Part shown: in pieces, positions 1-24,693 of the stretch | Numbering within the stretch: position 1 is the stretch's first letter | Layout: each line of letters begins with the position of its first letter | NCBI RefSeq assembly: GCF_053078305.1 | Contig: NZ_CP166879.1 | Strand: one strand, 5' to 3' | Length of the DNA stretch: 64,000 bases | Notes under the pieces: model-generated | Told to the model about the DNA's origin: nothing | Databases searched by the model: none | Seen by the model: the letters and a program-made list of their open reading frames with translations, nothing else | Position numbers and translations under genes: made by a program

Positions 1-1909
1 TATGCTGGGATTCACCAGGCCAGGCGCGTATTAATGGCGTCAGTTTGCGGGCGGTGTCATCGTTACCAAGAACGCCTAACGCAGTGAACGCCCAACTCTC
101 TTTCGACGGTGCGCCCGCAGTCAACCAGGCGGTAAACAGATCCCAGGCAAATTCAGCCAGTGAGTCGGCGGTACAGGCATCTTTCACCTGCAATAATCCC
201 GGATACAGGGCCTCTTCCTGAGGGAAGCGGAGCATTTCACCGAGGTGCTGGAGTGCGCTATCTGGCAGTACCTTGCTGCTATTTTTGATTTTCGGGCGAG
301 TCCATAATGGAGGTTGATAAAACAACGGTAAAGGGGGGATTTTCGCCGGGTATTTACCCACAGGACTGTTGTCGTTATTTTTATTTTGAGTTTCCCAGGG
401 CGGCGAGACTAGTACCATTGGTAGAATTTCTGAGTTTGCAAAATCTTCATTGCGACTATTCAGCAATTGCTGACATTGTTGCAATAAATTTGCCGCTTGC
501 GACGATAATCCGATGACTAATTTTTCAACCAATAAAGGATTTGCATTAAGTAATGAAACCAGCAACGTATGTTTGCGTTTATCATCTTTTTTTACCAATG
601 CTTCGGCTAATGCCGCTATCGTGGCAGAAGGAAAATTTTCGGCACTTTTTATTAGTCGTTCATAACAGCGTTTATTAGTATCGGCGGCTTCGATGAGTGC
701 CGTAATGGCCAACGGATGATTAATACATTTCAGTACGTCACCGCAATTATCTTCTTCAGCATAGGGAGCCAGGCGAGCCAGTGCCGCTATACCTTGCTCC
801 CGTAATACCGTAGCTGACCAACTGGCACCATAGGTGTTAAATACATCAATGTATTGATAGTTCTCCAGTATTTCGAGCGTGAATGGATCTGTCGCTACCA
901 GTTTCAACATTTCAAGTTGTGGAACATCTGCGACCTGGTGTAAACGATGTACGATCTCATGGGCCACTTCGGGTATTTCTGGCATTAAAATGGCAATTAA
1001 CGGTTGGCGAAAGAGTGATATATCTGGTAACGCAACGAGTAATTTTGCAATGCAATTTTGCCATACTTCTTCTTCTGCTAGTGATAAATGTTTACGCAGA
1101 CGTAAACTAAATTTGTCGTTATTCCTTCTATAACTGTCCTTGCTGCTATCTGCATAATTAATAAAGAAAGTCAAAAGTTCATCTTTATAGTCAAAATCGA
1201 AATCAATTTGCCACCAGAAGATGACAGTTTCAGTTGCGTATTCGATACCGAAGGTGCTTACAATTTCATCCAGCAACTCGGATGAGGTTTCATCATTCCA
1301 GCCCTGACAAAAACATATTTCCAGAAAAGTAAGTACCGCCATAGTACGCGCGGGTATCTCAGTCTTTTGGGCCTTAATTAAGCTGATTGCCTGGCTAATC
1401 GCATCAGCCCATTCATCAGAGCATGAGCTGTAATCGAAAGTCAGATTTTTATAATAATGATAAGTACGATTTGCCAATCGGGAAATTAAATTTTGTTTCT
1501 CGGGTTTGGTTGGTTTTTTTACTGGCTCTCCCGGCCAAAGGCGGTGGCTGAGGGCATGGCGGGCAATATTCGGGGGAAGAATAATGGGATCGTTGTCTGC
1601 CAGCCAGGGTAAACCATTAGTTGCTGCCTGGCGATTTATTGAGGCTTTTTCCTCTGTGACCAGGACTTTCTTTGCTGAGGCATCATGTGAGTGAGCGTTA
1701 GCGTCTACTTGCTCCACATACCCCTTCTTCACCTTCTCCGCAATCAGCTTCAGTTCCGCTTTTTCTGCCGCCGCAGCATCAGCAAAGCTTTTTACCTGAC
1801 TTTGCCCGTTAGTGCCGACTTTGCCCCAGTTGATATGCAGCTCGTTTCTCTGCTGCTCCACCGCCCAGAATTTATGTGATTTTTCGTCCTGATAAATATA
1901 GGTTTTCAT
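1..1909 (-). CDS. yehI: Large WGR-domain protein, N-terminal part only (gene runs off the window start); paralog of molR
   Basis: ATG at 1909 on the minus strand; translation begins MKTYIYQDEKSHKFWAVEQQRNELHINWGKVGT, a WGR-type motif. Open frame continues to position 1 with no stop. Nucleotide sequence is near-identical to the 5' end of the adjacent molR. Confidence 0.7.
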   Translation of the reverse strand, partial: MKTYIYQDEKSHKFWAVEQQRNELHINWGKVGTNGQSQVKSFADAAAAEKAELKLIAEKVKKGYVEQVDANAHSHDASAKKVLVTEEKASINRQAATNGLPWLADNDPIILPPNIARHALSHRLWPGEPVKKPTKPEKQNLISRLANRTYHYYKNLTFDYSSCSDEWADAISQAISLIKAQKTEIPARTMAVLTFLEICFCQGWNDETSSELLDEIVSTFGIEYATETVIFWWQIDFDFDYKDELLTFFINYADSSKDSYRRNNDKFSLRLRKHLSLAEEEVWQNCIAKLLVALPDISLFRQPLIAILMPEIPEVAHEIVHRLHQVADVPQLEMLKLVATDPFTLEILENYQYIDVFNTYGASWSATVLREQGIAALARLAPYAEEDNCGDVLKCINHPLAITALIEAADTNKRCYERLIKSAENFPSATIAALAEALVKKDDKRKHTLLVSLLNANPLLVEKLVIGLSSQAANLLQQCQQLLNSRNEDFANSEILPMVLVSPPWETQNKNNDNSPVGKYPAKIPPLPLFYQPPLWTRPKIKNSSKVLPDSALQHLGEMLRFPQEEALYPGLLQVKDACTADSLAEFAWDLFTAWLTAGAPSKESWAFTALGVLGNDDTARKLTPLIRAWPGESQH

Positions 1910-11295: not shown

Positions 11296-13776
11296 ATGTT
11301 GAGAATGACCCCACTTGCATCAGCAATCGTAGCGTTATTGCTCGGCATTGAAGCTTATGCAGCTGAAGAAACCTTTGATACCCATTTTATGATAGGTGGA
11401 ATGAAAGACCAGCAGGTTGCAAATATTCGTCTTGATGATAATCAACCCTTGCCGGGGCAGTATGACATCGATATTTATGTCAATAAGCAATGGCGCGGGA
11501 AATATGAGATCATTGTTAAAGACAACCCGCAAGAAACATGTTTATCAAGGGAAATTATCAAGCGGTTAGGCATTAATAGCGATAACTTCGCCAGCGGTAA
11601 GCAATGTTTAACATTTGAGCAACTTGTTCAGGGTGGGAGCTATACCTGGGATATCGGGGTTTTTCGTCTCGATTTCAGTGTCCCGCAGGCCTGGGTGGAA
11701 GAACTGGAAAGTGGCTATGTTCCACCGGAAAACTGGGAGCGGGGTATTAATGCGTTTTATACCTCTTATTATGTGAGTCAGTATTACAGTGACTATAAAG
11801 CGTCGGGTAATAGTAAGAGTACATATGTACGTTTTAACAGCGGGTTAAATTTACTGGGGTGGCAACTGCATTCTGATGCCAGTTTCAGTAAAACAAATAA
11901 CAATCCAGGGGTGTGGAAAAGCAATACCCTGTATCTGGAACGTGGATTTGCCCAACTTCTCGGCACGCTTCGCGTGGGTGATATGTACACATCAAGCGAT
12001 ATTTTTGATTCTGTTCGCTTCAGAGGTGTGCGGTTGTTTCGTGATATGCAGATGTTGCCTAACTCGAAACAAAATTTTACGCCACGGGTGCAGGGGATTG
12101 CTCAGAGTAACGCGCTGGTAACTATTGAACAGAATGGTTTTGTGGTTTATCAGAAAGAGGTTCCTCCTGGCCCGTTTGCGATTACAGATTTGCAGTTGGC
12201 CGGTGGTGGAGCAGATCTTGATGTCAGCGTGAAAGAGGCGGACGGTTCGGTAACCACCTATCTGGTGCCTTATGCAGCCGTGCCAAATATGCTGCAACCC
12301 GGCGTGTCGAAATATGATTTTGCGGCGGGCCGTAGCCATATTGAAGGGGCGAGCAAACAAAGTGATTTTGTCCAGGCGGGTTATCAGTATGGTTTTAATA
12401 ACTTATTGACGCTGTATGGTGGCTCGATGGTCGCGAATAATTATTACGCGTTCACTTTGGGGACTGGCTGGAATACACGCATTGGTGCCATTTCCGTCGA
12501 TGCCACGAAGTCGCATAGTAAACAAGACAACGGCGATGTGTTTGACGGGCAAAGTTATCAAATTGCCTATAACAAATTTGTGAGCCAAACGTCGACGCGT
12601 TTTGGTCTGGCGGCCTGGCGTTATTCGTCGCGTGATTATCGGACATTTAATGATCACGTTTGGGCTAACAATAAAGATAATTATCGCCGTGATGAAAACG
12701 ATGTCTATGACATTGCCGATTATTACCAGAACGATTTTGGCCGTAAAAATAGCTTTTCTGCCAATATGAGCCAGTCATTGCCAGAAGGCTGGGGTTCTGT
12801 GTCATTAAGTACGTTATGGCGAGATTACTGGGGGCGTAGCGGCAGTAGTAAGGATTATCAGTTGAGTTATTCCAACAACCTGCGACGGATAAGCTATACC
12901 CTCGCGGCAAGCCAGGCTTATGACGAGAATCATCATGAAGAGAAACGTTTTAATATTTTTATATCGATTCCCTTTGATTGGGGTGATGACGTTTCGACGC
13001 CTCGTCGGCAAATATATATGTCTAACTCAACGACGTTTGATGATCAGGGGTTTGCCTCAAATAATACGGGATTATCAGGAACAGTAGGGAGTCGGGATCA
13101 GTTCAATTATGGTGTCAACCTGAGTCATCAACATCAGGGAAATGAAACGACAGCTGGAGCGAATTTAACCTGGAACGCGCCGGTTGCGACAGTGAATGGC
13201 AGTTATAGTCAGTCGAGTACTTATCGACAGGCTGGAGCCAGTGTTTCAGGGGGCATTGTCGCCTGGTCGGGTGGCGTTAATCTGGCGAACCGTCTTTCCG
13301 AAACGTTTGCTGTGATGAATGCGCCAGGAATTAAAGATGCTTATGTCAATGGGCAAAAATATCGCACAACAAACCGTAATGGAGTGGTGGTATACGACGG
13401 AATGACACCTTATCGGGAAAATCACCTGATGCTGGATGTGTCGCAAAGCGATAGCGAAGCAGAATTGCGCGGTAACCGGAAAATTGCCGCCTCTTATCGC
13501 GGCGCGGTTGTACTGGTTAATTTTGATACCGATCAGCGCAAGCCCTGGTTTATAAAAGCGTTAAGAGCGGATGGGCAACCATTAACGTTTGGTTATGAAG
13601 TCAATGATATCCACGGTCATAATATTGGCGTTGTCGGCCAGGGAAGTCAGTTATTTATTCGCACCAATGAAGTACCGCCATCGGTTAATGTGGCAATTAA
13701 TAAGCAACAAGGACTTTCATGCACAATCACCTTCGGTAAAGAGATTGATGAAAGTAGAAATTATATTTGCCAGTAA
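11296..13776 (+). CDS. yehB: Fimbrial outer-membrane usher
   Basis: About 826 aa with a signal peptide, the size expected for a fimbrial usher. Start taken at MLRMTPLASA. Confidence 0.88.
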   Translation: MLRMTPLASAIVALLLGIEAYAAEETFDTHFMIGGMKDQQVANIRLDDNQPLPGQYDIDIYVNKQWRGKYEIIVKDNPQETCLSREIIKRLGINSDNFASGKQCLTFEQLVQGGSYTWDIGVFRLDFSVPQAWVEELESGYVPPENWERGINAFYTSYYVSQYYSDYKASGNSKSTYVRFNSGLNLLGWQLHSDASFSKTNNNPGVWKSNTLYLERGFAQLLGTLRVGDMYTSSDIFDSVRFRGVRLFRDMQMLPNSKQNFTPRVQGIAQSNALVTIEQNGFVVYQKEVPPGPFAITDLQLAGGGADLDVSVKEADGSVTTYLVPYAAVPNMLQPGVSKYDFAAGRSHIEGASKQSDFVQAGYQYGFNNLLTLYGGSMVANNYYAFTLGTGWNTRIGAISVDATKSHSKQDNGDVFDGQSYQIAYNKFVSQTSTRFGLAAWRYSSRDYRTFNDHVWANNKDNYRRDENDVYDIADYYQNDFGRKNSFSANMSQSLPEGWGSVSLSTLWRDYWGRSGSSKDYQLSYSNNLRRISYTLAASQAYDENHHEEKRFNIFISIPFDWGDDVSTPRRQIYMSNSTTFDDQGFASNNTGLSGTVGSRDQFNYGVNLSHQHQGNETTAGANLTWNAPVATVNGSYSQSSTYRQAGASVSGGIVAWSGGVNLANRLSETFAVMNAPGIKDAYVNGQKYRTTNRNGVVVYDGMTPYRENHLMLDVSQSDSEAELRGNRKIAASYRGAVVLVNFDTDQRKPWFIKALRADGQPLTFGYEVNDIHGHNIGVVGQGSQLFIRTNEVPPSVNVAINKQQGLSCTITFGKEIDESRNYICQ

Positions 13777-15463: not shown

Positions 15464-16288
15464 TTATCTCATAATACCCATAAAGCCATGCACTCCCATA
15501 TACACCCCAACTAAGCCAATCAACAGACTGGAAAAATAGGGGGCGCGTTTAGCGAGAGTGTTAAATCCGCTCCAGCGTTTTGCGACCTGCTGAACGCTGA
15601 TTGCTGCGCTAACGCCTACGGTGACAAGCGTTAACGCCAGGCCAATGCTGAAACTGACGACCAGTGTTGCGCCCAGTGTCAGGGCTTTCAACTGAATGCA
15701 AATCAACAGCACGGTAATTGCTGCCGGGCAGGGGATAAGGCCACCGGTTAAGCCAAATAGCAAAATTTGCCAGTTGGTGACCTCTCTACCATCAAAGCGT
15801 CGTTTAATGTCATTGGCATGGGCTCGTGCATGGGCATCCTGATACTCGCCATGTTCGTGATGGTGATGATGTCCATGGTCGTGGTGATCTTCGTGATCGT
15901 GATGATGATGCTCATAATCATGCCCGTGCATATTCTCCAGCCAGTTGCGTTCGCCGCGCCAGGTACGCCAGAACATCCAGAACGCGGTGCCAATAATGAT
16001 CACTGCGGAAATCAACTGGAGCCACGGTTCTGCTGATTGAGCAGTAAAGCGCTTGCTGATCACCATCCCGCCAAAGGCAATCAACCAGACCACCGCGGTA
16101 TGCGAAATAGTTGCTGCCAGTCCGAGCATCACCGCCTGTTTAATGGTGCCTTTGATGGCGATGATAAACGCCGCCATCATCGTTTTTGAGTGCCCTGGTT
16201 CCAGGCCATGAAGCGCACCAAGTAAGATGGCGCTGGGGATGAAGAACCAGGCGTTTCCTTGCTGAAGAAGAGTTGTAAATTCGGTCAT
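15464..16288 (-). CDS. rcnA: Nickel/cobalt efflux permease
   Basis: 274-aa membrane protein with a very histidine-rich loop (HGHDYEHHHHDHEDHHDHGHHHHHEHGEY). Confidence 0.92.
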   Translation of the reverse strand: MTEFTTLLQQGNAWFFIPSAILLGALHGLEPGHSKTMMAAFIIAIKGTIKQAVMLGLAATISHTAVVWLIAFGGMVISKRFTAQSAEPWLQLISAVIIIGTAFWMFWRTWRGERNWLENMHGHDYEHHHHDHEDHHDHGHHHHHEHGEYQDAHARAHANDIKRRFDGREVTNWQILLFGLTGGLIPCPAAITVLLICIQLKALTLGATLVVSFSIGLALTLVTVGVSAAISVQQVAKRWSGFNTLAKRAPYFSSLLIGLVGVYMGVHGFMGIMR

Positions 16289-16325
16289 GATAATAATTCT
16301 TAGTATTAATTAGGTAATCTGATTC

Positions 16326-16360
16326 TACTCCCCCCCAGTACCTGATACTACCCCCCAGTA
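16326..16360. promoter_or_regulatory. Two RcnR operator sites (TACT-G/C tract-AGTA) in the rcnA–rcnR divergent promoter region
   Basis: tactcccccccagta (16326-16340) and tactaccccccagta (16346-16360). These match the G-tract palindromes I recall as RcnR binding sites. Confidence 0.7.
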
Positions 16361-16408
16361 GATTAATAGTGCTATGATTTTTCATATTCTTGTTAACCAG
16401 GTGTTGCC

Positions 16409-16681
16409 ATGTCTCATACAATCCGTGATAAACAGAAACTGAAAGCGCGTGCCAGTAAGATTCAGGGCCAGGTCGTGGCGCTCAAGAATATGCTCGACGA
16501 GCCGCACGAATGCGCTGCAGTTTTACAACAGATTGCTGCTATCCGTGGCGCGGTAAACGGTCTGATGCGGGAAGTGATTAAAGGTCATCTAACGGAACAT
16601 ATCGTTCACCAGGGGGATGAGCTAAAACGTGAAGAAGATCTGGATGTCGTTCTGAAGGTGCTGGATTCATATATCAAATAA
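16409..16681 (+). CDS. rcnR: Ni/Co-responsive transcriptional repressor (CsoR/RcnR family)
   Basis: 90 aa; divergent from rcnA. Confidence 0.9.
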
Positions 16682-16770: not shown

Positions 16771-16903
16771 AACCAAACGACTCGGGGTGCCCTTCTGCGT
16801 GAAGGCTGAGAAATACCCGTATCACCTGATCTGGATAATGCCAGCGTAGGGAAGTCACGGACCACCAGGTCATTGCTTCTTCACGCTATGGCAGGAGCAA
16901 ACT
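16771..16903 (+). ncRNA. TPP (thi-box) riboswitch in the thiM leader
   Basis: The leader aaccaaacgactcggggtgcccttctgcgtgaaggctgagaaatacccgtatcacctgatctggataatgccagcgtagggaa contains the conserved thi-box elements (ctgaga, acctgatctggataatgccagcg) immediately upstream of the thiM ATG. Confidence 0.85.
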
Positions 16904-17692: not shown

Positions 17693-18489
17693 AACGAATT
17701 AACGCTCTGACGATTGCCGGTACTGATCCGAGTGGTGGTGCGGGGATTCAGGCCGATCTTAAAACCTTCTCGGCACTTGGCGCTTATGGTTGCTCAGTTA
17801 TTACTGCACTGGTGGCGCAAAATACCCGTGGCGTACAGTCGGTGTATCGCATTGAGCCTGATTTTGTCGCCGCCCAGCTCGATTCGGTGTTCAGCGATGT
17901 GCGAATCGACACCACTAAAATCGGTATGTTGGCGGAAACCGATATTGTTGAAGCGGTGGCAGAACGGTTGCAACGTTATCAGATCCAAAACGTGGTACTC
18001 GACACCGTTATGCTGGCAAAAAGCGGCGACCCACTGCTTTCACCTTCGGCAGTTGCCACGCTACGCAGTCGATTATTGCCACAGGTTTCATTAATAACGC
18101 CAAACTTGCCCGAAGCAGCCGCCTTGCTCGACGCGCCACACGCGCGCACCGAACAGGAAATGCTGGAACAAGGACGATCGCTGTTGGCGATGGGCTGTGG
18201 CGCAGTGCTAATGAAAGGTGGTCATCTGGATGATGAGCAAAGCCCGGACTGGCTGTTTACCCGCGAGGGTGAACAACGGTTTACCGCACCGCGCATTATG
18301 ACCAAAAACACCCACGGCACTGGTTGTACACTCTCTGCGGCGTTGGCTGCACTACGCCCGCGCCATACAAACTGGGCTGACACCGTACAGGAGGCAAAAA
18401 GCTGGCTTTCATCGGCGTTAGCCCAGGCCGACACGCTGGAAGTTGGTCACGGTATTGGTCCGGTTCACCACTTCCACGCCTGGTGGTGA
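17689..18489 (+). CDS. thiD: Hydroxymethylpyrimidine / phosphomethylpyrimidine kinase
   Basis: 266 aa; translationally coupled to thiM. Confidence 0.93.
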
Positions 18490-18544
18490 GCACCGTACTA
18501 TAGCTGCTTTGGTTATTGTCAGCCTTTGGCACTGACATTCAGGG

Positions 18545-19372
18545 ATGAAACCAATGCAGCTAAGAATTACCAGTCGAAAAAAACTCACCGCTCTATTATG
18601 CGCTCTTGGGCTAATTTCCATCGTTGCAATTTATCCGCGTCAGACGGTGAATTTTTTCTATTCGACAGCAATTCAGATTAAAGACTACATCCACTTCTAC
18701 GGTTATCGCCCGGTTAAATCTTTCGCTATTCGCATTCCTGCCAGTTACACCATTCACGGAATAGATGTTTCGCGCTGGCAGGAGCGGATCGACTGGCAGC
18801 GGGTGGCAAAAATGCGCGACAACGGTATCCGCTTACAGTTTGCTTTTATTAAGGCGACGGAAGGCGAAAAGCTGGTGGACCCGTATTTTTCGCGTAACTG
18901 GCAACTAAGCCGCGAAAATGGCCTGCTGCGCTGGGCGTATCATTATTTCTCCCCGTCGGTAGCAGCGCCTGTTCAGGCGCGATTATTTCTGCAAACGGTG
19001 GATTTCTCACAAGGCGATTTCCCTGCCGTGCTGGACGTAGAAGAACGGGGAAAATTATCGGCAAAAGAATTACGCAAGCGGGTAAGTCAGTGGCTAAAAA
19101 TGGTCGAAAAAAGTACGGGAAAAAAGCCGATTATTTACTCAGGAGCCGTTTTTTATCACACCAATCTGGCGGGCTACTTCAATGAATATCCGTGGTGGGT
19201 GGCGCACTACTATCAACGTCGTCCGGACAATGACGGAATGGCCTGGCGCTTCTGGCAGCATTCCGACCGTGGACAGGTAGATGGCATCAATGGTCCGGTG
19301 GATTTTAATGTGTTTAATGGCACGGTGGAGGAGTTGCAGACATTCGTTGATGGGATTAAAGAAACGCCTTAA
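18545..19372 (+). CDS. yegX: Glycoside hydrolase family 25-like (lysozyme-like) protein
   Basis: 275-aa ORF with an N-terminal hydrophobic segment; position matches yegX. The true start may be a few codons downstream. Confidence 0.7.
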   Translation: MKPMQLRITSRKKLTALLCALGLISIVAIYPRQTVNFFYSTAIQIKDYIHFYGYRPVKSFAIRIPASYTIHGIDVSRWQERIDWQRVAKMRDNGIRLQFAFIKATEGEKLVDPYFSRNWQLSRENGLLRWAYHYFSPSVAAPVQARLFLQTVDFSQGDFPAVLDVEERGKLSAKELRKRVSQWLKMVEKSTGKKPIIYSGAVFYHTNLAGYFNEYPWWVAHYYQRRPDNDGMAWRFWQHSDRGQVDGINGPVDFNVFNGTVEELQTFVDGIKETP

Positions 19373-19423
19373 ATAAGAAGCAGTGATATACTCCCACCAG
19401 ACTCCCTGGCAGGAAAAAGACAA

Positions 19424-20170
19424 ATGGAACAAGCGCATACCCAGCTGATTGCCCAACTGAACGAGCGTATTTTAGCGGCGGATAACACGCCGCTTTATAT
19501 TAAGTTTGCCGAAACGGTAAAAAATGCCGTGCGCAGCGGGGTGCTGGAGCATGGCAATATTTTGCCCGGTGAGCGTGATTTAAGTCAGTTAACCGGCGTT
19601 TCACGCATTACGGTGCGCAAGGCGATGCAGGCGCTGGAAGAAGAGGGTGTGGTGACGCGTTCGCGCGGTTACGGCACGCAGATCAACAACATCTTCGAAT
19701 ACTCGTTGAAAGAAGCGCGAGGTTTTTCTCAGCAGGTGGTATTGCGCGGGAAAAAGCCCGATACGCTATGGGTTAACAAGCGTGTCGTAAAATGTCCCGA
19801 AGAAGTCGCGCAGCAGCTGGCGGTCGAAGCGGGAAGTGATGTCTTTTTGCTTAAGCGTATTCGCTATGTCGATGAAGAAGCGGTATCGATTGAGGAATCA
19901 TGGGTTCCGGCGCATTTAATTCATGATGTTGATGCCATCGGAATTTCTCTTTATGACTATTTCCGCAGCCAGCACATTTACCCACAACGTACACGTTCCC
20001 GCGTTAGCGCCCGGATGCCAGATGCCGAGTTTCAGTCACATATTCAGTTAGATAGCAAAATACCGGTGCTGGTGATCAAGCAAGTGGCGCTTGACCAACA
20101 GCAACGGCCTATTGAATACAGCATTAGCCACTGTCGCAGCGATCTATACGTTTTTGTGTGCGAGGAGTAG
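19424..20170 (+). CDS. yegW: GntR-family transcriptional regulator
   Basis: 248 aa; N-terminal helix-turn-helix region and a C-terminal effector-binding region. Confidence 0.8.
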   Translation: MEQAHTQLIAQLNERILAADNTPLYIKFAETVKNAVRSGVLEHGNILPGERDLSQLTGVSRITVRKAMQALEEEGVVTRSRGYGTQINNIFEYSLKEARGFSQQVVLRGKKPDTLWVNKRVVKCPEEVAQQLAVEAGSDVFLLKRIRYVDEEAVSIEESWVPAHLIHDVDAIGISLYDYFRSQHIYPQRTRSRVSARMPDAEFQSHIQLDSKIPVLVIKQVALDQQQRPIEYSISHCRSDLYVFVCEE

Positions 20171-21109
20171 TTCCTCGCGCGTTGGCGCACAATCACCGCC
20201 CCGATGCCCGACAACCCACGACGCCACTGCATTGCCCAGTAATACGGCATCCGCCAGTGGCAGACCAGAGGCCAGCCCGGCAAGTACGCCACCGGCATGA
20301 CTGTCGCCCGCCCCAATGGTGTCGACAACTTGCGTTGGAAATGCCGGAATGCAGCCAGAAGCGTCGTTGCTGAAATACCATGCGCCTTCTTTATCGAGAC
20401 GAACGATCAACGGCGCGGCAAATTTCTCCTGCCATTGCTTGCCAAGTGTTGTTATCTCTGCGGATAAAGCAAAACGTTCGGCGGCAATCTCAGCCTCTTG
20501 ACGATTGAGTGACACTAAAGGGCGACAGGCCATGATCCGCGCCAGTAATGCATCCGGGATATCGCCAATACGTGGGCCAAAATCGATAAACGGCGTCACG
20601 TCTTGCAGCTCTTCCAGCCATTCCACTAACAATTCGCCGCAGGGCGAGGCCAGTTGATAACCGGAAAAATAGAGCAGGCTGCCAGGCGCAACGGTTAATC
20701 GCGCCAGCCACTGGCGATTCCACTGATTTTCCACACCGCTGAATGACATAAAAGTACGTTCGCCATCCGGCTCAACCAGCGCCAGACACCAGCCGTTATC
20801 GCCTTCGGCGTTATCGATCAGGCTGATTAACCCCTCTTTCGCCATCCGGTTGCGAATAATCTCCGCCCACACGCCCTGACCGAGCGGCAAGGCATTACCC
20901 GCTTCGATGCCGAGGCGCTTTAACGCCACGGCAATATTCAGTGCGCAGCCGCCAACGTTAACGCTCTGCTGTTTCAGTTCGATATCGCACCCACGCCAGG
21001 GGAGGGCATAAGCGTCGGCGATCACGTCAATGACCGCCGCGCCGACGACCATCACCGGCTGACGCGTGGTTAATTCAGGCAGCAGCGTGTGTAATCGAGC
21101 GCCGCTCAT
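20144..21109 (-). CDS. yegV: PfkB-family sugar/nucleoside kinase
   Basis: 321 aa with a PfkB-type motif (DTIGAGDSHAGG). Confidence 0.8.
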   Translation of the reverse strand: MSGARLHTLLPELTTRQPVMVVGAAVIDVIADAYALPWRGCDIELKQQSVNVGGCALNIAVALKRLGIEAGNALPLGQGVWAEIIRNRMAKEGLISLIDNAEGDNGWCLALVEPDGERTFMSFSGVENQWNRQWLARLTVAPGSLLYFSGYQLASPCGELLVEWLEELQDVTPFIDFGPRIGDIPDALLARIMACRPLVSLNRQEAEIAAERFALSAEITTLGKQWQEKFAAPLIVRLDKEGAWYFSNDASGCIPAFPTQVVDTIGAGDSHAGGVLAGLASGLPLADAVLLGNAVASWVVGHRGGDCAPTREELLLAHKNV

Positions 21110-22110
21110 ACCGCCTCCCGTTGTTGACGATATTTCGCCAGCGCTGTGGCATAGCGGTTGAAATCAAGCTGATTTACTGCATCCAGTTCCGCCTTTAACG
21201 CAGGATCGATAGCGTTAACGCCATGCAACGCGCCGCAAATTGCCGTCGCCATAGCTCCTATGGTGTCTGTGTCGCCGCCAAGGTTAGCGCACAGGACGGC
21301 GCAGCGATTCGGGTCGGTTTGTGCCAGTTCAACCAGCGCAATGGCGCACGGAACGGACTCAATAGTGCTGGTACCTGCGCCAACGACCTGGTAAAGCTGT
21401 TCGCAGGCGGATTCGGTGCCGTCGGCATTGCGCACAATTTTCAGCGCAATCTCCAGACGTGCTGCCAGTGAGGCGCTGAAGGTAGTGATGCGTTTTTGCT
21501 GTGCATGTCGCGCAATTGAAGGCAGTGAATCAACAATCGCTGACCAGCTTTCTCCGTCAATGGCACGAGAAATCGCCCATGCGATGACAACCGCGCCTGC
21601 AACCGCCAGATCGGATTTATGGGTCGGGCTGGACGCCAGCGCCACATCATCAATAAAGGAATCAACATCGTGCGCCGGAAGCAAACAACCTAATGGCGAG
21701 ACGCGCATCGCTGCGCCGTTGGTCACGCCGTTGTTTTCCAGTTCAGCAACGGGTTTACCGTCGCGAATGGCGTTGAGAGCAATCTTCGAGGTCGGACCTA
21801 GTACGTTTTTGTTAAAGGCGTCGAAACGCAGCGCCCAGTCGAGAATATTACGCCCAATCAGATTCGGGTCGATCTTGCCTTCACGTTCCAGTAACGCATC
21901 CGCCAGACACAGCGCCATCGAGGTATCGTCGGTGAATTCGGCGCGGTTAAAATAACAGGCCGCGTTATTCTCCTTTGGTCCAGGCAGAAAACGGTCAATC
22001 CAGCCAAAGTGTGCTTTAACGCGGCTGCGTGGCCAAAGCTCGGAGGGCATCCCCATCGCATCCCCTAACGCCTGCCCATAAAGAGCACCGAGAATACGTT
22101 CTGTTTTCAT
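21106..22110 (-). CDS. yegU: ADP-ribosylglycohydrolase-family protein
   Basis: 334 aa; overlaps yegV and yegT in an operon-like arrangement. Confidence 0.8.
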   Translation of the reverse strand: MKTERILGALYGQALGDAMGMPSELWPRSRVKAHFGWIDRFLPGPKENNAACYFNRAEFTDDTSMALCLADALLEREGKIDPNLIGRNILDWALRFDAFNKNVLGPTSKIALNAIRDGKPVAELENNGVTNGAAMRVSPLGCLLPAHDVDSFIDDVALASSPTHKSDLAVAGAVVIAWAISRAIDGESWSAIVDSLPSIARHAQQKRITTFSASLAARLEIALKIVRNADGTESACEQLYQVVGAGTSTIESVPCAIALVELAQTDPNRCAVLCANLGGDTDTIGAMATAICGALHGVNAIDPALKAELDAVNQLDFNRYATALAKYRQQREAV

Positions 22111-23384
22111 TTAACTTCCCCTTGTGTCAACGCAATATTGCGATCATCGACCTTGATAGCCGTAATTTCGTTGTCGGATTCGCGGAAAAAAATCATGAAC
22201 AGCACGGCGATAATGGCAATCATCACCGCGCCAAAAGTCCACATCCCGGACCAGTTGAAAGTCAGTCCGTTTACCGGTTCCTGATAAGCGAACATCTTTT
22301 CCATCATCACACCGCCAAGACGATAGCCGAGCAAACTGCCGAAGCCCTGGCAGCAGAGCGTGATCAGCCCCTGCGCGGCGGTACGCATATGCACGGGGGC
22401 TTTTTTATCGACATAGATGTAAGCGGTAACGTAGTAAAAATCGTAACTTACGCCGTGAAGCAAAATACCGAGGAACAGTAACGCGTAGGTGAAATATTCA
22501 TCCGCACTACCGTAAATAAAGAAGCCATAGCGGATCGCAGCAGTGATCAGACCAAGCAATAATACCTTTTTGATACCAAAGCGTTTAGTGAAAAACGGCA
22601 ATGCCAGCATAAAGAAGATTTCAGAGAACTGGCCGAGCGTCATCCAGCCGGTGGCGTTTTTCATGCCAACTTCGGTCAGATAACCGTTGGCAAAGATGTA
22701 ATAGAACGCCAGTGGCATCGCAAACAGGAATGAACAGAAGAAAAAGACGAGGAAGTTTTTATCGCGCAGCAGGATCAGCGCATCCAGGCCGAGCATGACT
22801 TTAATGTCCATTTTGCCGGTGCTTTTTGGTGGCGTGTCGGGCAGGAAAAACGCAAACACACCGAGCAGAGCAGAACTTCCGGCGGTAATCAGCAGCGGGA
22901 TGTTAGTCGGTGAGATATCGGCATACCCCAGCATTTGCGGCAAGAAACCACATGCCAGACCGGAGGCAATCCAGCCGATAGTGCCCATCACACGAATGCG
23001 CGGGAAATCACGCTCCACATCCGGCACGTTGGCAAAAGCGATACTGTTAGTCAGCGCAATGGTCGGCATATAGGTTAGCGAGTAGGCCAGCAGTAACGGG
23101 AAGAACCCGGCAAAAGTGGTCTGTTGCGCAGCGAAATACATCAGCAGCGCGCCTGCGAACATCAATACCGCCAGCACTTTTTGCGCCGAGAAAAAGCGGT
23201 CAGTGATGGAGCCAACCAGAATTGGCGACAGGATCGCCGCAATGGCTGTGCAGGCATACGACCAGCCAATTTCTCCGGCACTAAAACCGCTTTTACTTAA
23301 CCACAACCACAATGGCACAAACCACGCGCCCCAGATAAACCATTCAACAAACATCATGAACGACAGCTTTGCTGTTGTTTTCAT
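22107..23384 (-). CDS. yegT: MFS nucleoside transporter-like permease
   Basis: 425-aa polytopic membrane protein. Confidence 0.85.
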   Translation of the reverse strand: MKTTAKLSFMMFVEWFIWGAWFVPLWLWLSKSGFSAGEIGWSYACTAIAAILSPILVGSITDRFFSAQKVLAVLMFAGALLMYFAAQQTTFAGFFPLLLAYSLTYMPTIALTNSIAFANVPDVERDFPRIRVMGTIGWIASGLACGFLPQMLGYADISPTNIPLLITAGSSALLGVFAFFLPDTPPKSTGKMDIKVMLGLDALILLRDKNFLVFFFCSFLFAMPLAFYYIFANGYLTEVGMKNATGWMTLGQFSEIFFMLALPFFTKRFGIKKVLLLGLITAAIRYGFFIYGSADEYFTYALLFLGILLHGVSYDFYYVTAYIYVDKKAPVHMRTAAQGLITLCCQGFGSLLGYRLGGVMMEKMFAYQEPVNGLTFNWSGMWTFGAVMIAIIAVLFMIFFRESDNEITAIKVDDRNIALTQGEVK

Positions 23385-23640
23385 CTTTTAATTCCTTCAT
23401 GACAGGTAATGTAAGGTACGCGATGACAATACCACTTAATAATACCTTTTAAATACCTTCGCGGTGAAAACTTGACCGCGCTAACATTTTTTCTGATGAA
23501 TCGAGCCAACAGAAAACGCTGAAAAAACATCCAAAAGATGGAAAAACTCGCCCGTAACGACCAGGATTATGATTGCCCGCAAAAGGCGGGCCAGGACAAT
23601 CCATAGCCGATATCCAATCGGAATTTACGGGAGCATAGTA

Positions 23641-24693
23641 ATGACAGATATTGCGCAGTTGCTTGGCAAAGACGCCGACAACCTTTTACAGCACCGTTGT
23701 ATGACTATTCCTTCTGACCAGCTTTATCTCCCCGGACATGACTACGTAGACCGCGTGATGATTGACAATAATCGCCCGCCAGCGGTGTTACGTAATATGC
23801 AGACGTTGTACAACACCGGGCGTCTGGCTGGCACAGGATATCTTTCTATTCTGCCCGTTGACCAGGGCGTTGAGCACTCTGCCGGAGCTTCATTTGCTGC
23901 TAACCCGCTCTACTTTGACCCGAAAAACATTGTTGAACTGGCGATCGAAGCGGGCTGTAACTGTGTGGCGTCAACTTACGGCGTGTTGGCGTCGGTATCG
24001 CGGCGTTACGCGCATCGCATTCCATTTCTCGTCAAACTTAATCACAACGAGACGCTAAGTTACCCGAATACCTACGATCAAACGCTGTATGCCAGCGTGG
24101 AGCAGGCGTTCAACATGGGTGCGGTGGCGGTTGGTGCGACTATCTATTTTGGCTCGGAAGAGTCACGTCGCCAGATTGAAGAAATTTCTGCGGCTTTTGA
24201 ACGTGCGCACGAGCTGGGCATGGTGACAGTGCTGTGGGCCTATTTGCGTAACTCCGCCTTTAAGAAAGATGGCGTTGATTACCATGTCTCCGCCGACCTG
24301 ACTGGTCAGGCGAACCATCTGGCGGCAACCATAGGTGCAGATATCGTCAAACAAAAAATGGCGGAAAATAACGGCGGCTATAAAGCAATTAATTACGGTT
24401 ATACCGACGATCGCGTGTACAGCAAGTTAACCAGCGAAAACCCGATTGATCTGGTGCGTTATCAGTTAGCTAACTGCTATATGGGCCGGGCCGGGTTGAT
24501 AAACTCCGGCGGTGCTGCAGGCGGTGAAACTGACCTCAGCGATGCAGTGCGTACTGCGGTTATCAACAAACGCGCTGGCGGAATGGGGCTGATTCTTGGA
24601 CGTAAGGCGTTCAAGAAATCGATGGCTGAAGGCGTGAAACTGATTAACGCCGTGCAGGACGTTTATCTCGATAGCAAAATTACTATTGCCTGA
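23641..24693 (+). CDS. fbaB: Fructose-bisphosphate aldolase class I
   Basis: Start taken at [18 protein letters not shown], 24 codons inside the track ORF. Confidence 0.9.

Follow-up and report, generated by a model that had tools for sequence, protein, structure and literature searches.

Positions 18,545 to 23,384 of a 64,000-nucleotide stretch of contig NZ_CP166879.1 (RefSeq assembly GCF_053078305.1), referred to here as the window, carry five genes, yegX, yegW, yegV, yegU and yegT, and it is the yegTUV operon and its regulator yegW that concern us here. All five open reading frames (ORFs) listed in a preliminary description of the window, made from the sequence alone, are present at the noted coordinates, the Pfam family claimed for each is borne out, and the RefSeq annotation gives the same five genes under the same names. 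The operon lies on the minus strand and starts with yegT (22107..23384; Nuc_H_symport, PF03825, 610.6 bits), followed by yegU (21106..22110; ADP_ribosyl_GH, PF03747, 221.4 bits) and yegV (20144..21109; PfkB, PF00294, 191.7 bits), with a four-nucleotide ATGA overlap at both the yegT/yegU and the yegU/yegV junctions. On the plus strand, yegW (19424..20170) encodes an N-terminal GntR winged helix-turn-helix domain (PF00392, 59 bits) and a C-terminal UTRA domain (PF07702, 125 bits); it is convergent with yegV and overlaps it by 27 nucleotides (20144-20170). The overlapping stops and starts of the preliminary description are thus found within yegTUV, and they are not found between yegX and yegW, which are separated by a gap of 51 nucleotides.

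The gene order in the window is that of K-12 (rcnA-rcnR-thiMD-yegX-yegW-yegVUT-fbaB-gatYZ). All five genes belong to the E. coli core; over 99% of complete genomes carry yegTUV, and the stretch of about 6 kb has a match of 95-99% identity in 5416 of the 5426 complete genomes of the species. The top match to window positions 18000-24000 is 99.1% identical and nearly all matches fall within the 95-99% band, and the source lineage therefore has no near-identical complete genome in this collection. The operon is ordinary-looking, with nothing anomalous about it. Its description as an uncharacterised regulated cluster is outdated, as the regulator (Saito et al., 2024; PMC10819704) and the structure of the transporter YegT (Xiao et al., 2025; PMC11979927) are both published. 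Neither the locus nor its regulator is new, and our addition is comparative data.

The remark in the preliminary description that the substrate is not established appears still to be right. The searchable literature holds no enzymatic function for YegU or YegV and NCBIfam (June 2026) no equivalog for either, and the regulator study states that their function 'awaits future studies' (PMC10819704). Other papers in the searchable literature that mention yeg genes give no functional data beyond the two studies cited above. Sequence and fold searches of the PDB return no close relative of YegU or YegV with a characterised function, and the names that homologues carry in their sources are generic throughout and uninformative on function. 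This is a core operon whose enzymes are without assignment despite a characterised repressor and a transporter crystal structure.

To place the two enzymes in context, YegU was searched against 1.84 billion representative proteins, and an alignment of 28 diverse YegU homologues was used as the query against GTDB genomes, giving 79 loci, one per species; 96 loci were fetched in all, and neighbours were counted by tblastn within 5 kb of the YegU homologue. A YegV-type PfkB kinase lies near the YegU homologue in 64 of the 79 loci and a GntR/UTRA regulator in 53, and the pairing of YegU with YegV spans Proteobacteria, Firmicutes, Actinobacteria and Chloroflexi. The transporter varies among three mutually unrelated families. 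The YegT-type nucleoside:H+ symporter (NHS) family is found in 28 loci (Enterobacterales, Vibrio and Gilliamella), NCS1 in 20 (Aeromonas, Serratia oryzae, Bacilli, Lactobacillales, Dialister, Parasutterella, Chloroflexi and others) and PnuC in 13 (Lachnospiraceae, Clostridium, Gemelliphila, Epulopiscium and others). One of these three accompanies the pair in 60 of the 64 loci that have both YegU and YegV, and two families occur together in one locus only. A regulator-YegU-NCS1 arrangement is also found in Chromobacterium and Photobacterium damselae, and metagenome contigs place ECF-type and ABC-type importers beside the pair.

We further note that eight of the distant YegU relatives checked are fusions of YegU with YegV, and that the fusions occur in both orders, PfkB-ARH and ARH-PfkB, where ARH denotes the ADP-ribosylglycohydrolase domain. 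The cross-phylum neighbourhood, the translational coupling and these independent fusions are strong evidence that YegU and YegV catalyse consecutive steps, and the displacement of the transporter by non-orthologous families indicates that their substrate comes from outside the cell. The fusion proteins (P0186, P0198, P0204, P0205, P0213, P0219, P0226 and P0248) are 600-760 amino acids long. Five fusion loci (L013-L015, L095 and L096) have ECF, ABC or NCS1 transporters and a GntR/UTRA regulator adjoining; one of them (L095) also carries a second, stand-alone ARH paralogue, and another (L013) carries genes for a DeoB-like protein, DeoC and alcohol dehydrogenases.

The operon is reduced in some lineages. 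Serratia (S. marcescens) and Edwardsiella keep yegU and yegW without kinase or transporter, and Brenneria keeps yegU alone. The persistence of yegU in these genomes suggests that cells can also generate the YegU substrate internally, as would be the case for a nucleotide. In the Edwardsiella and Serratia loci (L040, L042, L043 and L052) and in Brenneria (L038), the yegU orthologue is 63-66% identical and is preceded by the sequence GGTAY-N6-GGTAY-TAT; the Edwardsiella and Serratia yegU-yegW pair lies between phoPQ-like and purB/hflD-like genes, named by eye. Downstream neighbours of the clostridial YegU-YegV-PnuC operons were judged by eye to be unrelated housekeeping genes. In one locus with a YegU-YegV-NCS1-DeoD cluster (L009), a guanidine-I riboswitch (RF00442, 87.5 bits; 12918-13023, minus strand) precedes a downstream pair of SMR (Multi_Drug_Res) genes, which appears to be an unrelated neighbour.

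We assign YegT to the importers of the NHS family, which belongs to the major facilitator superfamily (MFS), based on a match of 652 bits to TIGR00889 (cut-off 446). G311, D315, E255 and K267 are the residues of the crystallised K-12 protein, and the GxxxD motif of TM10 (G311, D315) is present. The published structure, at 3.1 Å, has the same fold as NupG (root-mean-square deviation 1.57 Å) and shares with NupG and XapB the TM10 GxxxD protonation motif (PMC11979927). YegT is, however, only 27% identical to NupG, the NupG residues that contact the uridine base are not conserved in it, and isothermal titration calorimetry (ITC) gave no significant signal with uridine, adenosine, cytidine or guanosine (PMC11979927). 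This evidence speaks against the four canonical nucleosides as YegT substrates.

YegU matches PF03747 far above the cut-off of 26.2 bits and over 285 of 287 profile positions. Its AlphaFold2 model (predicted local distance difference test 97, predicted template modelling (TM) score 0.95) adopts the all-alpha ARH fold, and the top Foldseek hits, all with probability 1.0 and TM-scores of 0.72-0.82, are MJ1187 (0.82), an ARH-related protein of T. thermophilus, ARH3 and DraG. The nearest solved structures, MJ1187 and the T. thermophilus protein, are themselves uncharacterised or described as ARH-related. Residues E41, T76, D77, D78, D314, D316 and T317 of ARH3 correspond to E24, T60, D61, D62, D280, D282 and T283 of YegU (the ARH3 sequence used is six N-terminal residues short, and adding six gives the literature numbering). 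These metal-binding and catalytic positions are conserved in 22-28 of the 28 family members. H164 of YegU is also conserved in the family, and its equivalent in ARH3, H182, is a phosphate contact. YegU thereby shares fold, binuclear-metal ligands and catalytic glutamate with ARH3, DraG, ARH1 and Tri1, at an identity of 20-26%, and looks to be a catalytically competent ARH-fold glycohydrolase with a binuclear metal site.

The adenine-stacking residues of ARH3 are not kept in YegU. F143 and Y149 sandwich the adenine in ARH3, and Y212 with an ExxA element in DraG and Y263 in ARH1 are the corresponding adenosine elements (PMC7050489). YegU has N126 and V129 in place of F143 and Y149, together with a three-residue deletion; K/R/N and T/V/L/I occupy these positions across the family. 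This fits a YegU substrate that has a phosphoribosyl part and not necessarily an adenosine; the fit is a soft one, because adenosine binding differs among ARH classes. Against the DraG and Tri1 equivalogs, YegU scores 80.5 (cut-off 337) and 69.6 (cut-off 490). To our knowledge, in every ARH substrate characterised so far the ribose that is cut at C1'' bears a phosphoryl group at its 5'' position, and all characterised ARH enzymes cleave alpha-linked ADP-ribosyl bonds.

For YegV, 57 family members from the fetched loci and the YegV of the window (n=58) were aligned to E. coli RbsK, whose reference sequence was verified to be identical to PDB 1RKD/1GQT. The family keeps the RbsK positions D16, G41, G42, N46, N187, E190 and D255, which serve the ribose 2',3'-diol and 5'-phosphoryl transfer, and in YegV numbering D269 (in the motif TIGAGD), N202 and E205 are invariant in all 58 sequences. 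Other RbsK positions have changed: N14 is replaced by V, F, I or M, K43 by Cys in 52 of the 58, and E143 varies among A, E, S and V, while a near-invariant F120 and an invariant Y151 are gained. The human equivalents of K43 and E143, K54 and E154, are reported to be essential for ribokinase (PMC12621476). YegV also falls far below the cut-offs of the ribokinase equivalogs (82.1 bits against 299.65 for TIGR02152 and 59.7 against 341 for NF008353). The loss of the residues that contact free ribose, together with these scores, led us to reject YegV as a plain ribokinase, and we propose that it is a riboside 5'-kinase that traps its substrate metabolically.

Carriers of the PnuC type are facilitators and need their cargo to be phosphorylated, as in the PnuC/NadR system. 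Given this need for trapping, the lost free-ribose residues, the low equivalog scores and the 5''-phosphorylation of ARH substrates, we favour an order in which the kinase step precedes hydrolysis; we infer this order and do not claim to have demonstrated it. In the reverse order, YegU would free ribose and an aglycone from an imported riboside or ribosyl conjugate, and YegV would be a dedicated ribokinase that yields ribose-5-phosphate. The changes in YegV and in particular the substitutions at K43, N14 and E143 and the added aromatic residues speak against this, as do the score of 82 bits against a ribokinase cut-off of 300, the presence of RbsK in E. coli, the need of PnuC-type carriers for a phosphorylated cargo and the 5''-phosphate on the ribose that ARH enzymes cleave. 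It draws support from the closest NCBIfam and PDB relatives of YegV, which are ribokinases, from the side activity on ribose that PfkB kinases such as RikA and DeoK often have (PMC13432705), and from the Rus loci of Bacteroidetes, which pair ribokinases with ADP-ribosylglycohydrolases or nucleoside hydrolases (bioRxiv 10.1101/574913). The retention of yegU without yegV in Serratia and Edwardsiella would also be workable if the housekeeping RbsK took over the ribose. A Salmonella mutant that lacks rbsK, deoK and rikA does not grow on ribose (PMC13432705) and Salmonella enterica carries the yegTUV operon, which argues against a ribokinase role of YegV; this argument is weak because the operon is repressed. 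Overall, we consider the hydrolase-first order unlikely. Salmonella RikA (STM3547) was also considered as a YegV orthologue and was rejected, as it lies in a different locus and a different context.

Regulation of the operon has been worked out in part. Saito et al. (2024; PMC10819704) gave YegW the new name GgaR and showed by chromatin immunoprecipitation (ChIP-chip), electrophoretic mobility shift assay (EMSA), Northern blot and reverse transcription-quantitative PCR that it represses a single target, yegTUV; a cell holds about 20-30 molecules of it. A fragment of 190 bp upstream of yegT is bound at low protein concentration, and a second fragment within the yegT ORF (nucleotides 571-869), which coincides with a second ChIP peak, more weakly and at higher protein concentration (PMC10819704). 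The 3.3-kb yegTUV mRNA, undetectable in the wild type, increases about 30-fold when ggaR is deleted (PMC10819704). The YegW protein of the window is identical to the RefSeq YegW of strain XJ34. Its GntR and UTRA domains place it in the HutC subfamily of the GntR family, and it scores below the cut-offs of all HutC-type NCBIfam equivalogs (PhnF, HutC and TreR), and is therefore a distinct HutC-type member. The convergent yegV/yegW overlap is listed as an excludon supported by RNA-seq (PMC12288877), and derepressed transcription of yegTUV could thus dampen ggaR expression.

The regulator study defines no binding motif (PMC10819704), and the window offers a candidate. Upstream of yegT, on the minus strand, a candidate primary operator (O1, 23415..23457) consists of three direct GGTAT boxes (23457-23453, 23446-23442 and 23433-23429, spaced by 11 and 13 nucleotides) and an inverted GTACC (23419-23415). 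A predicted sigma-70 promoter of yegTUV (23439..23468, minus strand; TTCACC, 18 nucleotides, TATTAT), which is a match in a consensus scan only, has its -10 hexamer inside the second GGTAT box as read from the sequence, and this overlap of operator and -10 element would explain repression through promoter occlusion. A 34-nucleotide direct repeat links the upstream region (23424-23457) to the yegT ORF (22544-22577) at 76% identity, and the copy within the ORF is a candidate auxiliary site (O2, 22544..22577, ORF nucleotides 808-841, minus strand; GGTATCAAAAAGGTATTATTGCTTGGTCTGATCA). The pattern GGTAT-N6-GGTATTAT has exactly two matches in the 64-kb window, against 0.01 expected. Both lie on the operon strand and both fall in the two published GgaR-bound fragments and nowhere else in the 64 kb. 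We suggest on this basis that GgaR binds this pattern; the published binding is to the fragments.

The O1 footprint is conserved as AAGGTATTTAAAAGGTATTAT-N5-7-TGGTAT-N10-GTACC from Escherichia to Pectobacterium and Budvicia, and with variation in Vibrio, and it also occurs 5' of the lone yegU of Serratia, Edwardsiella and Brenneria. A relaxed motif, GGTAT-N6-GGTAYTA, is found in 27 of the 96 fetched loci and only at O1- and O2-type positions. O2 encodes the conserved peptide FGIKKVLLLGL; its motif is kept in the loci of eight species, including Vibrio and Budvicia, and synonymous sites vary elsewhere. O2 may thus be an auxiliary or looping site, or may be partly fortuitous. In Photobacterium damselae (L002:7850-8001) and Chromobacterium haemolyticum (L046), tandem copies of (A/T)TGGAYTT lie between regulator and operon with an 11-nucleotide period, which is also the period of the enteric GGTAT boxes. 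This suggests a co-evolved variant of the operator, built from direct and not inverted repeats, which would be unusual for a HutC-type regulator. The candidate operator provides a direct handle on yegTUV regulation.

These observations can be combined into a model, to which we give an even chance, in which yegTUV would take up and cleave a non-canonical riboside as one compact module and would be kept off by GgaR. Dimers of GgaR would sit on the tandem GGTAT boxes over the yegT -10 element and on the weaker copy about 880 bp downstream inside yegT. An inducer would bind the UTRA domain and release GgaR, as ADP-glucose does in vitro, and the physiological ligand is more likely the phosphorylated pathway intermediate or else an ADP-ribose-like or nicotinamide mononucleotide (NMN)-like molecule. 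YegT would import the unphosphorylated riboside, YegV would phosphorylate its 5'-OH and so trap it in the cell, and the binuclear metal site of YegU would hydrolyse the ribosyl-aglycone bond of the riboside 5'-phosphate. The products would be ribose-5-phosphate, which would enter the pentose-phosphate pathway, and a free base. The suggestion in the preliminary description that transporter, glycosidic hydrolase and PfkB kinase together handle a nucleoside-like ribosyl compound stands up, and comparative genomics adds strength to it. The question is narrowed to an imported, non-canonical and probably vitamin-like riboside that would be 5'-phosphorylated and then cleaved by an ARH-fold enzyme.

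As to the identity of the riboside, the swapped transporters point to a vitamin-like compound, since PnuC and ECF carriers are families that typically handle vitamins. In a Lachnospiraceae genome, the operon-linked PnuC shares 39.5% identity over 220 residues (E = 5e-49) with the crystallised nicotinamide riboside (NR) carrier 4QTN, and with 150 bits it clears the cut-off of 42 set for the NCBIfam PnuC equivalog. One fusion operon contains a gene of the isochorismatase/nicotinamidase superfamily, and PDB 7ARW is a structure of ARH3 with alpha-NAD+, a form of nicotinamide adenine dinucleotide (NAD). The gene for the E. coli NMN nucleosidase (EC 3.2.2.14) is described as 'not yet identified' (PMC1249556). 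On these grounds the leading candidate for the substrate is nicotinamide or nicotinate riboside (NaR), an unproven choice that we rate as improbable on its own. YegV and YegU would in that case be a PfkB-type NR/NaR kinase and an ARH-fold N-glycohydrolase of NMN or nicotinate mononucleotide (NaMN), and would make up a widely distributed route, tied to PnuC, NCS1 or NHS carriers, from imported NR to nicotinamide and ribose-5-phosphate; we hold this pairing of activities to be doubtful as well. Alpha-ribazole, modified RNA nucleosides and AICA-riboside remain as other candidates.

Several points weigh against the kinase-first model or its nicotinamide version. Ordinary nucleosides, NR and NMN are beta-ribosides, whereas the known ARH enzymes are alpha-specific. 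PnuC/NadR already serves NR in E. coli. The linked NCS1 carriers weakly resemble the CytX/Fcy nucleobase branch (67 bits), so that a base is a possible cargo, and the DeoD phosphorylase and DeoB/DeoC found in some loci fit generic (deoxy)nucleoside catabolism equally well. Both the order of steps and the substrate are read solely from sequence and gene context. YegU is also unlikely to account for the constitutive NMN glycohydrolase activity measured in extracts, given the tight repression of yegTUV in laboratory media; the candidacy of YegU for this classical activity was judged doubtful, the operon being undetectable unless ggaR is deleted. Finally, GgaR is known to be released by one ligand only, ADP-glucose, and the phenotypes on record are those of glycogen (PMC10819704); the model accounts for them only indirectly.

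These last data underlie the proposal of Saito et al. (2024) that YegTUV use or make ADP-glucose for glycogen synthesis and that GgaR, by sensing ADP-glucose, sets glucose storage. In EMSA, GgaR leaves the yegT promoter with ADP-glucose and not with ADP or glucose, and yegTUV mRNA is 3-fold higher at 1% than at 0.25% glucose in a GgaR-dependent manner (PMC10819704). Cells deleted for ggaR hold 2-3 times more glycogen and their growth on minimal glucose is poor, and a yegV deletion mutant had turned up in a screen for low glycogen (PMC10819704). Literature that assigns the genes to a characterised pathway, named in the preliminary description as what would overturn its reading, is thus half in existence: its link to ADP-glucose and glycogen is a phenotypic one. 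Its authors themselves call the link 'somewhat ambiguous' (PMC10819704). We see no plausible ADP-glucose-forming reaction for an ARH hydrolase or a PfkB kinase, and elsewhere the pair is linked to PnuC, NCS1 and ECF carriers, which are of the vitamin or nucleobase type and not nucleotide-sugar carriers. A nucleoside 5'-phosphate moiety is part of ADP-glucose, which closely resembles ADP-ribose. The effectors tried on GgaR were ADP-glucose, ADP and glucose only, and ADP-ribose, NAD, NMN and ribosides were not among them (PMC10819704). Glycogen also builds up when growth is limited and carbon is in excess (PMC10819704, introduction). Since the ggaR mutant grows poorly in minimal glucose and growth limitation raises glycogen, its glycogen phenotype may be secondary, arising from unregulated action of YegU and YegV on the nucleotide pool. 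We therefore regard a direct role of YegTUV in ADP-glucose metabolism as quite improbable.

A role of YegU in reversing protein or nucleic-acid ADP-ribosylation in the manner of DraG, ARH1, ARH3 or Tri1, with kinase and transporter loosely associated, agrees with its Pfam, NCBIfam and PDB relatives (DraG, Tri1 and ARH3) and its intact metal and catalytic residues, and is nonetheless highly improbable given the scores far under the DraG (80 against 337) and Tri1 (70 against 490) cut-offs, the missing adenine-stacking residues of ARH3, the absence of an ADP-ribosyltransferase partner adjoining YegU in the gene maps examined, and the operon linkage and fusion with a sugar or nucleoside kinase and the small-molecule importers, which point to metabolism.

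The model of uptake, phosphorylation and cleavage has a precedent in the pseudouridine system psuT(yeiM)-psuG(yeiN)-psuK(yeiC), in which an importer, a PfkB 5'-kinase and a glycosidase likewise yield ribose-5-phosphate and a base. In some organisms, PsuK and PsuG are fused. The resemblance is one of pathway logic only: YegU has the ARH fold (PF03747) and is not PsuG/IndA-like, YegV scores 19 bits against the PsuK model NF007355 (cut-off 540), and the importer is of the NHS family whereas that of the Psu system is of the CNT family. The pseudouridine pathway is described in PMC9247573. A second parallel is PnuC/NadR, where an unphosphorylated riboside is likewise trapped by a cytoplasmic kinase, and PnuC itself accompanies the YegU/YegV pair in the 13 species loci noted above. 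Here, however, the kinase is PfkB-type and not a P-loop kinase of the NadR/Nrk kind, YegU would destroy the nucleotide and not adenylylate it, the E. coli carrier is YegT, and the repressor is of the GntR/HutC type and not NadR, NiaR or NrtR.

The Rus loci of Bacteroidetes also combine a kinase, a transporter and ribosyl-cleaving enzymes, including ADP-ribosylglycohydrolases, and scavenge ribose from ribosides (bioRxiv 10.1101/574913). They are, however, ribose-induced polysaccharide utilization loci of the SusC/D type with true ribokinases, whereas yegTUV is a three-gene cytoplasmic module with a non-ribokinase-like kinase and a GntR repressor. With respect to ARH3, DraG, ARH1 and Tri1, YegU differs, beyond the replacement of F143 and Y149, in a context that is metabolic and not that of toxin and immunity or of nitrogenase regulation.

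If the model is right, ARH chemistry would reach beyond protein, nucleic-acid and ADP-ribose substrates to small nucleotides, the occurrence of this enzyme pair in many gut Firmicutes, Vibrio and lactobacilli would have its explanation, and the published ADP-glucose/glycogen reading of GgaR would need re-examination. Were the riboside indeed NR, the operon would supply an inducible gene for the NMN nucleosidase activity (EC 3.2.2.14), and YegU would be the first ARH-fold enzyme of cofactor metabolism shown to have a small-molecule nucleotide as its substrate. In that case ADP-glucose would be a surrogate for an NMN-like or ADP-ribose-like effector of GgaR, and the glycogen phenotype of the ggaR deletion would be secondary to perturbed NAD or nucleotide pools.

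The remaining gene of the stretch, yegX (18554..19372, plus strand), encodes a membrane-anchored muramidase-like protein of the GH25 family (PF01183, 179 bits); RefSeq starts it at 18554, compared with the ORF start at 18545 used in the preliminary description. That description had counted yegX as part of the cluster, and this does not hold up. By tblastn, a YegX homologue lies near a yegU relative in two E. coli loci only among the 96 fetched loci; within 10 kb of yegU relatives YegX is confined to E. coli, with none at the 78 loci of other species. In other Enterobacteriaceae, thiD/thiM directly follow yegW and yegX is not between them. As its adjacency is restricted to E. coli and yegTUV is the sole GgaR target in the ChIP data, yegX was rejected as a cluster member and is an unrelated neighbour outside the yegW-yegTUV module. 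Codon 127 of yegX, in the conserved GAYH motif of GH25, encodes Trp here (LLRWAYHYF) and Gly in strain XJ34 (LLRGAYHYF); this G127W change could impair the enzyme. YegX differs from that of XJ34 by four more substitutions.

A link between the operon and thiamine was considered on account of thiMD beside yegW, TenA in Lentilactobacillus and the weak CytX likeness of the NCS1 carriers, and was rejected. Each of thiMD and TenA is under its own thiamine pyrophosphate (TPP) riboswitch, no riboswitch of any kind lies ahead of the YegU/YegV operons, and the adjacency of thiMD is limited to enteric synteny. In the window, the TPP riboswitch (RF00059, 71 bits; 16773-16869, plus strand) lies 5' of thiM-thiD, as a separate regulatory unit beside the yeg genes. 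Further upstream, the region 15464-16681 holds, on the minus strand, the gene of a His-rich membrane protein (HGHDYEHHHHDHEDHHDHGHHHHHEHG), which adjoins that of a divergent 90-amino-acid regulator; by comparison with the K-12 map, this pair looks like rcnA/rcnR (Ni/Co efflux and its repressor). The closest complete genome, that of XJ34, has prophage remnants (a tape measure protein and an integrase) upstream of thiM instead.

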